IMG/VR virus record: IMGVR_UViG_3300017780_001408 | Location: 1 to 24,211 of that record | Direction: 5' to 3' (one strand) | DNA length: 24,211 nucleotides | From: a virus | Taxonomy: Duplodnaviria; Caudoviricetes | In this document: positions 10,063 through 12,525 of the stretch, piece by piece | Layout: each line of letters begins with the position of its first letter | Position numbering within the stretch: the first letter of the stretch is position 1 | Translations under genes and position numbers: made by a program | Notes under the pieces: model-generated | Databases searched by the model: none | What the model saw: the letters and a program-made list of their open reading frames with translations, nothing else | What the model was told of the DNA's origin: nothing

Positions 10063-10230
10063 TCAGTACTTGCCCTTCATGACTGGCTTACCAGCCTTTT
10101 TCATCTTGGCTTCTTCCATTTTCTCGCCTTTTTTGTACAGGGCGGGCGGCATCTTCTTCTCAGACTTCTCTTCTTTGGCAGTTTCTTTGCCTTTGAAGCG
10201 GGACATTAGGGCTGCGGGCATTTTGGCCAT
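10063..10230 (-). CDS. Lys/Glu/Met-rich small basic protein
   Basis: 55 aa ORF missing from track: MAKMPAALMSRFKGKETAKEEKSEKKMPPALYKKGEKMEEAKMKKAGKPVMKGKY; AGGAG RBS and promoter upstream. Confidence 0.75.
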   Translation of the reverse strand: MAKMPAALMSRFKGKETAKEEKSEKKMPPALYKKGEKMEEAKMKKAGKPVMKGKY

Positions 10231-10257
10231 GAGGTGCTCCTGGTGGTTGATGTATGT

Positions 10258-10285
10258 ATCTTAACGCGGAAATCAGATGAGTCAA
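10258..10285 (-). promoter_or_regulatory. Sigma70-type promoter for the packaging operon
   Basis: TTGACT (10285-10280) - 16 nt - TAAGAT (10263-10258), about 28 nt upstream of first ATG. Confidence 0.65.
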
Positions 10286-10485
10286 GTGCAGTAACGGGTA
10301 AGAAGCTCGCCTGCCAATTCGTTGAGCCTTGGCTTGAAAATCGGAAAACAACCAAGTCCTCCATCCCCGTTGCGCCGATTTAACAACTGCACGTTGAGAA
10401 GTATAGGGTGTTGGTGTCTCCCATAGGGCAGGGTTGGAATCAACTGAACGGAAGTTCCACGGGGCCAATCCGTTTACACCAACAC
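10286..10485 (-). ncRNA. Candidate structured non-coding RNA (two domains)
   Basis: 10-bp closing stem 10408-10417/10476-10485 enclosing three hairpins; second domain with stems 10286-10292/10386-10392 and 10293-10298/10366-10371 and a 7-bp pseudoknot 10338-10344/10375-10381; bracketed by two promoters. Confidence 0.55.
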
Positions 10486-10489
10486 AAAT

Positions 10490-10517
10490 ATGGTACGTGG
10501 GTGCGGGCGGATGTCAA
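10490..10517 (-). promoter_or_regulatory. Sigma70-type promoter for candidate ncRNA
   Basis: TTGACA (10517-10512) - 16 nt - TACCAT (10495-10490), AT-rich tract further upstream; predicted start falls at the 5' end of the closing stem. Confidence 0.65.
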
Positions 10518-10519
10518 GG

Positions 10520-10655
10520 GGGCGGGGTCGGGTATATAAATGTACGTAGTTGTATGTATATGAAAATTTTAGGTCTTGTAGTGTGTGAAGGGGGTAGAAG
10601 TGGGCACCCGTCCGCGTGTCCGTGTCCCTCCCCCCTGCCCGCCGCCGCCCATCGC
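10520..10655. other. Divergence point; candidate packaging site/genome terminus
   Basis: G-runs, AT tract, AAAATTTT, CCGCGTGTCCGTGTCC and CCG repeats just upstream of the terminase operon; positional inference only. Confidence 0.3.
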
Positions 10656-10670
10656 ACCATGTTGGCTGTT

Positions 10671-11224
10671 AGTGTAGGGTGATGATCGTATCCCCTACGC
10701 TGGCAACGATGCCAAGCATGATGCCCTTTGCATACCCTCTGGGGTTTGCCATTCTCCGGATTGTGGGTTGATTGTTTTGCTAGTCAGCACTGGTCATTAA
10801 AAATTTGTATTGGAATCCCATGCCGTGGCGGGCGTGGCTGAGTGTGAAGTAGTCGAAGGCACTCTGACTGCATTGAATTGATGCGGGATAAGCTCTGTGT
10901 GTAGTGTAGTAGCAAGTAGTAGGCTTGATGCGTGAAGTAAGCTGGCGGCAGAAGTGTCGTGCTGAAAATCGCATAGAACAGGCTTGACTGGCGACAAACC
11001 GCAAGCACGCACAACAACTTATACCACCATGATTCTTACGCACAACTGTATGGCGGTGCAAGACCGTATGCGGTATGTAATGTCCAATGGAATAGACATT
11101 GGCAAGTAGCGCCGACTTAAACGGGCGATGAGGTACGAACAGCGGACACCAAGAACAGCAAGTCCGAGTCCCCTGAATTCAGGGGGCATCATAGTGTGTA
11201 GTGACAGTATGCACTAAGTGTCCC
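10671..11224 (+). ncRNA. Candidate long structured RNA/leader preceding the first early gene
   Basis: No credible ORF; several hairpins with G-U pairs valid on + strand (10671-10701, 11182-11224), T-loop-like GCGGTGCAAGACCGT, 16-bp palindrome 11170-11185. Confidence 0.4.
10791..10804 (+). promoter_or_regulatory. boxA-like antitermination element
   Basis: TGGTCATTAAAAAT resembles rrn boxA TGCTCTTTAACAAT. Confidence 0.3.
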
Positions 11225-11249
11225 TTAACTTATTAACTTGGAGAATTTC

Positions 11250-11738
11250 ATGAATCAAATCACAATCACCCCTGCAATCGTCAATGTGTCTGGCAAGACC
11301 AAGGTCGAGCGTCAAGTGTCTGTTGTTCGCAACGCATCTCAGCAAGCATTGACCGCTTGTCTGTCACTCAAGGGTAAGGTGGGCAACGCTATCCGTGCCA
11401 ATGCCGCATCCGCTGGTTTGCTCGATGTTGCTGCGGCGTGTGTCAACTCAAACTACAAACCACTGGTCGAGATGCTCAGCATCCGCTTGGGTGAACCCAT
11501 GATTGTCAGTAACCGCGCATCGTTCGAATCACTGCCTGACTTGTTCGAAGCCCGCATCATGAAGGCAAAGCTGGCGAAGAACGATGGTATGCGCCTCGAC
11601 AAGAAGTCTGGTGCACTGGTTGCTGGTTCTAAGCTGGCAACTGAGATGGAATTGAAAGCACTGGTGACTGACATTATCCGTGCCGTCAACGAGTACCACG
11701 CTACCCGCAAGGCTGAACAGCAAGCTGTCGAAGCCTGA
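11250..11738 (+). CDS. Hypothetical early protein
   Basis: 162 aa from ATG 11250 with GGAG RBS; biased codon usage; A/K-rich. Confidence 0.8.
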   Translation: MNQITITPAIVNVSGKTKVERQVSVVRNASQQALTACLSLKGKVGNAIRANAASAGLLDVAAACVNSNYKPLVEMLSIRLGEPMIVSNRASFESLPDLFEARIMKAKLAKNDGMRLDKKSGALVAGSKLATEMELKALVTDIIRAVNEYHATRKAEQQAVEA

Positions 11739-11743
11739 TCCAC

Positions 11744-11772
11744 TGTCCCTGAGTACGGACGCAAACTGCTCA
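11744..11772 (+). other. H-type RNA pseudoknot in intergenic space
   Basis: S1 TGTCC/GGACG (11744-48/11757-61), S2 TGAGTA/TGCTCA (11750-55/11767-72), loops C, C, CAAAC. Confidence 0.45.
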
Positions 11773-11800
11773 TCACTCACTAACTTAACCGGAGAATCCA

Positions 11801-11989: not shown

Positions 11990-11991
11990 AT

Positions 11992-12354
11992 GTTAGTGGA
12001 CACTCACGAGAATATTCCAGGGGTGTCCAGCGGAATATTCACTGGAATATTCAGTATTACATAAAATATCCATAGGAATCAACCACTTATGTGTCCATGT
12101 AATACTCAATATTCCAATATTCCAATATTCCACATAGTCAGACGCCCTTACGCGAGAGATGATCAACGATTGTTGCGTGGGAGCGCGACATACACACAAT
12201 CCACAATATCTCAAAACCCGCCTGACCCTTTCCAAAATCTGGAATATTGGAATATTCCCGTTAGTGTTCACTAACCCCCTAGTATCCATGCGGGTTCTAG
12301 CGTAAGTGTCCACTCACGAGAATATTCCAACCCAATTTTCCACCGGAATATTCA
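11992..12354. repeat. Iteron-like repeat cluster; putative replication origin
   Basis: Ten AATATT cores (GGAATATTCC-like), 19-bp direct repeat 12001-12019/12311-12329, 17-bp inverted repeat 12116-12132/12240-12256, three GTTAGTGnnCACTAAC-like dyads. Confidence 0.7.
12077..12089 (+). promoter_or_regulatory. IHF-binding consensus site
   Basis: AATCAACCACTTA matches WATCAANNNNTTR exactly, inside the repeat cluster. Confidence 0.5.
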
Positions 12355-12448
12355 CCCCGCTTGGTGGTGTGCGGCGGCGTCCGCACCTATCATGCCGTCA
12401 ATCGACCGCTTGTTTCTAATCGGTCTCAATCACTTCTGCTTGGGCAGA

Positions 12449-12477
12449 AGCATAACAAATAAAATTCGGCAAGTCAA
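12449..12477 (-). promoter_or_regulatory. Strong leftward sigma70-type promoter facing the repeat cluster
   Basis: TTGACT (12477-12472) - 17 nt - TATGCT (12454-12449) with extended -10 TG. Confidence 0.6.
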
Positions 12478-12525
12478 GCGAATCAAGGGATTCCCCACTA
12501 ACTCACTCAACTATTGGAGCACCTC

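Follow-up and report, generated by a model that had tools for sequence, protein, structure and literature searches.

The window analysed here, by which we mean the whole stretch of 24,211 nucleotides, is a 24-kb piece of the genome of an uncultured, freshwater, podovirus-like phage. To the left of position 10230 the minus strand carries the terminase, portal, capsid and tail genes, and from position 11250 the plus strand carries the early genes (an ATPase, a VWA/metallopeptidase pair and nucleases). The leader described in this work occupies the divergent gap between the late (minus) and early (plus) gene arms. The nearest terminase from a cultured phage is 43% identical, and among 50,697 GenBank phages there was neither a DNA match for 10240-11260 nor a protein match for the first early gene. 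Relatives have genomes of 53-60 kb, with terminal repeats in two of them, and an integrase was found in 0 of 5 (the search control was positive). In a complete relative, about 25 kb of early genes are all co-oriented, and a scan of 36 of its 76 open reading frames (ORFs) found neither a sigma factor nor an RNA polymerase or antiterminator.

A preliminary description of this DNA had singled out the gap as an ORF-free, hairpin-dense region within an otherwise tightly packed genome. All 15 sequence words that it quoted were located where it had placed them, and no plus-strand ORF of at least 45 aa exists between 10683 and 11238. The tight packing was overstated, since 10230-10670 and about 11990-12510 are likewise non-coding. 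Translation of minus-strand ORFs had been named as an observation that would speak against an RNA; the four such ORFs (57-93 aa) were rejected as genes, as they have no PHROG or Pfam match and are interrupted by stops in relatives. The features of the leader are listed in Table 1.

Table 1. Position of the leader features in the window and the basis for each of them
Feature	Position	Strand	Basis
Candidate extended -10 word, TG-N-TAGTGT	10667..10675	+	Sequence, relatives
AUCG-loop hairpin	10676..10696	+	boxB position of Acidovorax rrn leader
boxA (core 10792-10803)	10790..10805	+	Match to host-type rrn spacer boxA
GUGGCG-loop hairpin	10818..10837	+	14 nt after boxA; fold prediction
6-bp hairpin with conserved purine-rich loop	10840..10864	+	Covariation
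Exchangeable middle module, including the 11045-11074 hairpin	10871..11085	+	BLAST gap in L001/L086; joints in runs X2 and X7
Two hairpins: GGAA..AGAC-loop stem (11084-11102) and AGUA-flanked stem (11105-11128)	11084..11128	+	Helices 1-3 80-88% paired, double changes
Predicted H-type pseudoknot, 38 nt ("motif B")	11129..11166	+	Covariation
Exclusive hairpins A (11168-11187) and long B (11181-11226), with moderately U-rich tail	11168..11234	+	Predicted antiterminator/terminator pair
Ribosome-binding site and first early gene (162 aa)	11240..11738	+	62 homologues

On the late side of the gap, a sigma-70-like promoter (10517-10490, minus strand) is directed at the late genes. Adjoining the terminase genes, 10520-10675 is a conserved block of A-tracts and GC runs, in which relatives share the word TTGTCS..TCAWRMCC-NNN-RGTGT, duplicated in some of them and unlike a sigma-70 promoter; the block could be a genome end, a packaging site or an unusual promoter. 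The minus strand at 10288-10394 gives a strong Rfam match (77 bits) to the Rhizobiales sRNA Atu_At1. The match falls inside an optional cassette of 229 bp that brings a -10-like word of its own, is found in many relatives and is cleanly missing from the closest ones; this "bacterial sRNA" is in fact a phage cassette that precedes the late operon.

Conservation and possible transcription of the leader

Folding of the single sequence weakly supports a structured RNA, as the 591 nt fold only modestly better than chance (z -1.88 on the plus strand, with 3 of 100 shuffles equally good, and z -1.39 on the minus strand) and 2 of 13 windows of 120 nt within the region fall below z -2, compared with 9% of 90 coding windows. 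A cmscan search, proposed earlier for the detection of a large RNA, returned no Rfam match in 10671-11240 at the gathering threshold or at E<=5, and no tRNA or tmRNA was found in the region. The proposed alignment of homologues, on the other hand, revealed strong compensatory pairing of the leader stems. Homologues comprised 17 loci collected through the first early protein and the best 80 of 229 collected through the terminase, and length and module counts were made on 43 distinct leaders anchored on boxA. Across 22 sequences and 20 pairs, 86.8% of the cells are paired, 14 pairs show double changes and the covariation score is 0.418, against 0.157 for shuffled and at most 0.136 for slid alignments. 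Because the aligned leaders are related, shuffles overstate significance, and the slid alignments and the mismatch test described below are the better controls.

Only local hairpins covary, and no conserved long-range multistem fold was seen. The leader is a chain of local stems, fixed in order and exchangeable in content across relatives, and boxA and the first start codon are about 155-480 nt apart in the 43 distinct leaders (a few of these values reflect mis-called starts). Fixed order, exchangeable modules and local covariation together point to a modular leader acting in cis rather than to one large folded RNA and, judged by sequence comparison, 10676-11249 is the modular, conserved 5' untranslated leader of the early operon.

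Transcript coverage and end mapping had also been proposed; one metatranscriptome contig does cover the leader, but contigs give no strand, ends or level. In run X7, a 496-nt contig with a depth of 14.1 lies on L001:3414-3909, which corresponds to window positions 10683-11158; depth is 3-4 over the next genes and there is no cover just upstream of the leader. The contig ends inside the loop of the pseudoknot described below; a contig end does not locate an end of the RNA. Parts of the region occur in eight runs, each with at most a quarter of its words. Depth is flat in run X1, the leader has almost no cover in X6 and X8, and X2 and X3 are probably DNA; leader depth was low in all four RNA-labelled runs compared. 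The X7 contig is thereby a weak hint, from one study, of leader transcription.

These results bear on the proposal that the region specifies a large non-coding RNA of its own, comparable to GOLLD or ROOL. Its length of about 570 nt is near the ROOL mean of 581 nt (as given in PMC5737381), many of its stems covary and one contig holds the leader only. However, there is no Rfam match, length and modules vary, with the pseudoknot and an alternative CTAAA motif replacing each other, and the region always stands directly 5' of the first early gene. Together with purely local covariation and the low depth in all four RNA-labelled runs, this makes an independent RNA highly improbable.

The promoter-proximal part and boxA

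The promoter identity of 10667..10675 is uncertain: relatives keep RGTGT but not always TAnnnT, no -35 was seen and the promoter scan gave no sigma-70 match at this place. The hairpin that follows, noted earlier as GATG-ATCG-TATC, was borne out: 20 of 25 leaders form at least 4 pairs, of various types. Its AUCG loop is identical in the rRNA operon (rrn) leader of Acidovorax, and is AUCA in that of Comamonas.

The boxA-like word of the preliminary description is present, and no other linear word of the leader is as well conserved. Compared by eye, this boxA shares 14 of 16 letters with the one in the 16S-23S spacer of Comamonas and Acidovorax, a match that suggests a Comamonadaceae-like host; the rrn boxA of Bordetella has the AACAAT form (3 of 5 Burkholderiales genomes yielded rRNA operons). 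Relative to the E. coli consensus as quoted in PMC5725501, the window boxA has 2 mismatches, with A where the consensus has T. Strand preference was counted in 43 terminase loci with at least 2.6 kb of upstream sequence, drawn from the best 80 of 229 and not de-duplicated. The exact degenerate boxA word occurs on the early strand in 28/43 and on the antisense strand in 0/43, and with one mismatch in 36 sense versus 9 antisense; 15/43 relatives lack the exact word and 7/43 lack one at <=1 mismatch. Two boxA copies about 100 nt apart are found in 20 of the 43 distinct leaders, the first directly after the AUCG-loop hairpin. The window phage has no such upstream near-consensus boxA, and its sole boxA lies about 95 nt downstream of the AUCG hairpin.

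A host-like boxA on the transcribed strand and a hairpin 5' of it, both found here, are traits of rrn leaders, in which the hairpin comes before boxA and boxA nucleates the Nus/SuhB complex, according to the account in PMC8632103. A boxB-type hairpin (10818-10837) within about 15 nt after boxA gives the arrangement of a lambda nut site as well. Read by eye, the letters of this stem change in relatives and yet pair; RNAalifold missed it because the alignment was out of register. The GAGTGT/GCACTC stem noted earlier (10840-10864) holds, with 6/6 pairs unbroken in 19 sequences and double changes at 4. A GTG(T/C)G word at 10841, at most a candidate boxC, pairs locally. An antitermination or processing leader had been one of the options raised at first, and it gains support from a boxA of rRNA context that is confined to the plus strand and has a fixed place before the first early gene.

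In the closest relatives, 10871-11085 is swapped for unrelated structured sequence. Within this module the GCAAG-loop hairpin was upheld and can be extended to 11045-11074 (12 consensus pairs in 10 sequences, 6 of them with double changes). Two other stems of the preliminary description fared worse. The ACCACCAT..ATGGCGGT stem is not part of the consensus fold; its letters are invariant and an alternative pairing is possible. AATGTC..GACATT (11079-11100) is 43.9% paired, which is the shuffled level, and this register was rejected, the covarying one being 11084-11102. The fourfold recurrence of AAGTA is real (shuffle mean 0.71, with 4 of 2000 shuffles reaching 4, for a word chosen post hoc), but only for the copy at 11104 is conservation shown.

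A predicted pseudoknot in front of the leader end

An element missed in the preliminary description, a predicted H-type pseudoknot, is the core novelty of the leader. Phage early leaders with boxA are of a known kind. Stem 1 pairs GGU (11132-34) with ACC (11148-50) and stem 2 pairs 11143-47 with 11162-66, with no spacer between the stems. The element starts with an invariant UGA and its last loop (11151-61) is an invariant, A-rich stretch of 11 nt; overall, invariant UGAGG and RCCAAGAACAG(C/A)AA enclose a variable stem. In 46 hand-picked instances the pseudoknot is 83.4% paired, with a covariation score of 0.537 against 0.186 shuffled and <=0.153 slid. Double changes occur at all five pairs of stem 2. 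The first two pairs of stem 1 carry no weight because they were fixed by the search patterns, and the third is CG in 21 instances, UA in 21, UG in 3 and other in 1 (45/46 paired).

The mismatch test in IMG/VR compared the paired C:G pattern with a mismatched C.A pattern. The former occurs in about 240 stretches (89 distinct among 120 read), with stem 2 in 51/89 and boxA within 290 nt in 22/89. The latter occurs in 59 stretches (43 distinct), with boxA in 0 and the stem in 8/43, 6 of these 8 being one near-identical family; on these patterns, the C.A form is not found as a real element. In metagenomes, 22/22 stem-bearing hits are paired and C.A appears in 14/92 other hits. A compensated GA:UC change in stem 1 was seen in one phage family only (3/92 distinct hits). 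The pseudoknot thus tolerates G-U pairs and not A-C. This result also concerns the idea that the stems act as single-stranded or cruciform DNA, in a genome end, packaging or entry signal, for which the nearness of the conserved GC-run/A-tract block beside the terminase genes could be cited. DNA would leave unexplained the distinction between G-U and A-C, the strand specificity of boxA and the presence of the same pseudoknot in the middle of prophages behind sigma-70 promoters, and we give this idea almost no credence.

As predicted from covariation, the element would have the H-type monomer form of type III antitoxins. Rfam gave no match over it, including the riboswitch, ribozyme and ToxI models, in the window and in sets of 20, 18 and 2 other loci. 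No description of it was found in the literature covered; the supplements of PMC5737381 and PMC11109978 and part of PMC10690425, which lie outside that scope, may list an unnamed candidate.

Occurrence of the pseudoknot

The window has a single copy. By strict pattern, the pseudoknot is present in 18/43 distinct leaders and absent from 25/43. At its place, 10/43 leaders (L030, L032, L034, L041, L043, L048, L050, L061, L064 and L069) have a CTAAA..CATGG.TAAAC junction, never together with the pseudoknot, and 15/43 have neither; this motif is possibly its functional analogue. A model search found the pseudoknot in 2/151 family-level genomes, one of them the seed genome, which is an undercount because only 42 candidates were scored per genome, and most of the 120 hits of a genome-wide pattern scan are chance. 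It was found in none of three rrn loci.

By record title, the pseudoknot is carried by Burkholderiales prophages of Comamonas, Acidovorax, Pandoraea, Achromobacter and Bordetella, 90-250 nt behind a sigma-70-like promoter, and nine cultured Bordetella phages have the same pseudoknot-bearing leader. In prophages it lies downstream of a cI-type repressor gene and upstream of RecT/Sak4/ParB/Ea22-type genes, which is the nutL/putL position; PHROG 4 (cI-type repressor) is upstream in 6/22 Burkholderiales-type or other loci scanned and the repressor is annotated in phage OM293952. The pseudoknot is also found near cI genes in AT-rich prophages. A boxA with <=1 mismatch lies upstream of 11/21 lytic, 11/41 prophage-type and 1/10 AT-rich copies and 0/135 chance hits, and a terminator lies within 170 nt of 5/21 lytic, 11/41 prophage-type and 0/10 AT-rich copies and 7/134 chance hits. 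The association with boxA and terminators is real but partial: about half of the prophage-type copies have no boxA within 290 nt and most of these prophage-type copies have no strict terminator nearby, so that the pseudoknot is not tied to either. In five prophage leaders (L099, L201, L098, L198 and L341) the Rfam family Burkholderiales-2 maps antisense, between boxA and the pseudoknot; its Rfam strand may be wrong, or it may be an antisense RNA.

Copy number varies as well. A 1.9-kb metagenome contig (L748:401-795) holds ten copies in tandem, one every 41 nt, whose loops are invariant and whose paired stems all differ, a Chloroflexota MAG contig holds four, and other contigs hold 2-3; among tandem-loop hits in IMG/VR, 4/10 are real, all two-copy. 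The ten-copy array, where stem 2 varies from copy to copy but stays paired and the loop does not change, and the smaller groups of copies would suit a stackable decoy. It would bind a host protein that is conserved, either a defence nuclease, as with ToxI and pseudo-ToxI, or an abundant RNA-binding factor, and the rRNA-style leader would supply large amounts of it immediately upon infection or induction. Type III antitoxins are tandem H-type pseudoknots, that of CptI having a long, A-rich loop (described in PMC5086642), a phage mimic of such an antitoxin exists (described in PMC3475682), and the X7 leader contig is deeper than the downstream genes. A decoy nevertheless seems quite unlikely to us, as the pseudoknot is usually single-copy in a fixed promoter-proximal place and the few real IMG/VR tandems stop at two copies. 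Moreover, antitoxin repeats are near-identical and toxin-specific, whereas here divergent stems go with a loop that stays invariant across phyla, and no Rfam ToxI model matches.

One copy lies between the tRNA genes of a phage (L511), a position that invites comparison with processing elements. In favour of a new self-cleaving ribozyme or a nuclease block, releasing or stabilising early mRNA as in rRNA leader processing, are the invariant unpaired bases that flank the short stem 1 on either side, the distribution as a self-contained element without a protein partner, and the RNA contig that ends inside the loop, although contig ends do not locate RNA ends. With no Rfam ribozyme match and an A-rich invariant loop that looks more like an A-minor docking strand, we regard processing as very unlikely.

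The leader end and the first early gene

The long hairpin noted earlier as GGGGCA..TGTCCC was confirmed as hairpin B at 11181-11226, formed in 9/9 loci that carry the module. Hairpins A and B share a G run and are thus mutually exclusive; both fold in 9/9 distinct loci with the module, with changed letters, kept pairing and near-equal energies. The pair has the predicted anatomy of an attenuator. The strict terminator scan did not call hairpin B, and called only 2 weak plus-strand terminators in 13.6 kb.

An attenuator directly behind a small pseudoknot with an invariant unpaired core, as seen in those 9/9 loci, is what would be expected if the pseudoknot were a ligand- or protein-sensing, riboswitch-like aptamer, with A/B as its expression platform, early genes gated on a host signal and boxA only protecting the leader. 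Several riboswitch aptamers are small H-type pseudoknots, invariance across phyla fits a universal ligand, and terminators are enriched downstream in prophages (11/41 vs 7/134). We still hold a riboswitch to be unlikely, because the downstream genes have no common metabolic theme, no overlap of the pseudoknot with hairpin A or B was seen, most copies have no clear platform, one array has 10 copies and no Rfam riboswitch matches.

The 62 homologues of the first early protein include none with a name. Its model (11250-11738) is a helical fold (pLDDT 88.8) with no match at E<=0.001 in PDB or BFVD and no Atlas match at 0.9, and the protein has a conserved basic GK..GN..R stretch. PF11438 (N36), a short and weak model, matched in 0/5 near-complete relatives. 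Going by the predicted fold, the protein is not N-like, and the gene after the pseudoknot has no toxin match. Between the first and second early genes, at 11748-11773 on the plus strand, 6/9 relatives keep a hairpin CCTGAGYA-loop-AAACTGCTCA, without an Rfam match. Further on, about 11990-12510 is non-coding, C-rich and G-poor, a composition that makes it a likely Rho entry site. Within it, the origin-like stretch 11990-12360 contains GAATATTC as direct and as inverted repeats and keeps its place in relatives.

A probable host-factor leader for early transcription

Our results are best explained, and we consider it probable if only just, by a leader that is a host-factor antitermination/attenuation signal, letting host RNA polymerase read through the early operon. 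In this model, transcription would start near 10680. The AUCG hairpin and boxA would recruit NusB-S10, NusA, NusG and SuhB, as on rRNA, and this recruitment would shield the 570 untranslated nt and the C-rich 11990-12510 from Rho. The pseudoknot, made just before hairpin B, would bind RNA polymerase or a Nus factor, in a put-like manner and with no phage N protein, and once bound would favour read-through of B and of later stops. Transcripts stopping at B would leave a leader RNA of ~500 nt, and a stable attenuated RNA of about that length is possible. Invariance of the pseudoknot across unrelated phages and hosts implies a conserved host partner, or none, rather than a phage N protein.

Some observations stand against antitermination. 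A 10-copy array is unexpected for a polymerase-binding antiterminator, several relatives have no boxA, and 25/43 leaders have no pseudoknot by strict pattern. In 13.6 kb only 2 weak plus-strand terminators were found. The window boxA departs from the E. coli consensus, and boxA can promote, rather than prevent, Rho termination, as presented in PMC5725501.

For the pseudoknot itself we suggest, tentatively and with somewhat less than an even chance, a new cross-phylum, protein-free phage RNA device that heads early transcripts, singly or in arrays of ten, in phages of Burkholderiales, Chloroflexota and AT-rich hosts, whether lytic or temperate. It would control early genes by gripping a universally conserved target in the host, be it RNA polymerase, a Nus factor or a small signal molecule. 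If this is true, HK022 put would gain its first widespread counterpart or, alternatively, a riboswitch class would for the first time be phage-wide. For the question of how phages other than the enteric lambdoids pass host terminators without N or a polymerase of their own, this is a short, sharply defined RNA common to phages, both lytic and temperate, from several host groups, and its cultured carriers make the question testable. A portable read-through or sensing element of 40 nt would also be a useful tool.

Comparison with known systems

The leader resembles GOLLD and ROOL in size, phage setting and lake origin; unlike them, it is modular and positioned in cis, without a model match or a conserved global fold. 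Rfam Burkholderiales-2 (RF02917) and the pseudoknot share prophage leaders; the family maps to the interval from boxA to the pseudoknot, but on the opposite strand, leaving the pseudoknot uncovered, and is absent from the window. With the type III antitoxins (ToxI, CptI) and the PhiTE pseudo-ToxI, the pseudoknot shares a small H-type fold, possible tandem arrays and, with CptI, an A-rich loop. It differs from them in being mostly single-copy, in the divergent stems of its arrays, and in having no Rfam match and no toxin gene seen behind it; the window does not have their combination of tandem near-identical repeats, terminator and toxin gene.

In lambda nut, as here, boxA is followed by a small hairpin and the site precedes the first terminator and the early genes. 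Unlike lambda, no N was found, the first gene encodes a folded helical protein without a match, and the pseudoknot loop does not vary among unrelated phages, in contrast to boxB/N pairs, which are specific to each phage. Several traits are shared with the rrn leader and spacer (boxB-boxA-boxC, with NusA/B/E/G, SuhB and S4): a hairpin precedes boxA, another boxA often follows, boxA and an AUCG loop match Comamonadaceae rrn, the untranslated RNA is long and no phage protein was seen. In contrast with rrn, the phage leader precedes protein genes, its second boxA is only about 100 nt on, it has no clear boxC and it carries the pseudoknot, which the three rrn loci do not.

HK022 put is likewise a structured nascent RNA just after an early promoter, temperate phages carry the pseudoknot at the pL leader, and there is no N-like first gene. 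In the account of PMC9378689, put is a ~70-nt V-shaped double stem-loop that binds the beta' zinc-binding domain. The phage pseudoknot is a 38-nt H-type element, often with boxA and spread across phyla; compared with put by description, covariation gives an H-type pseudoknot in place of a double stem-loop of ~70 nt with a triplex, and it is therefore not a put member. By analogy, it may work like put.
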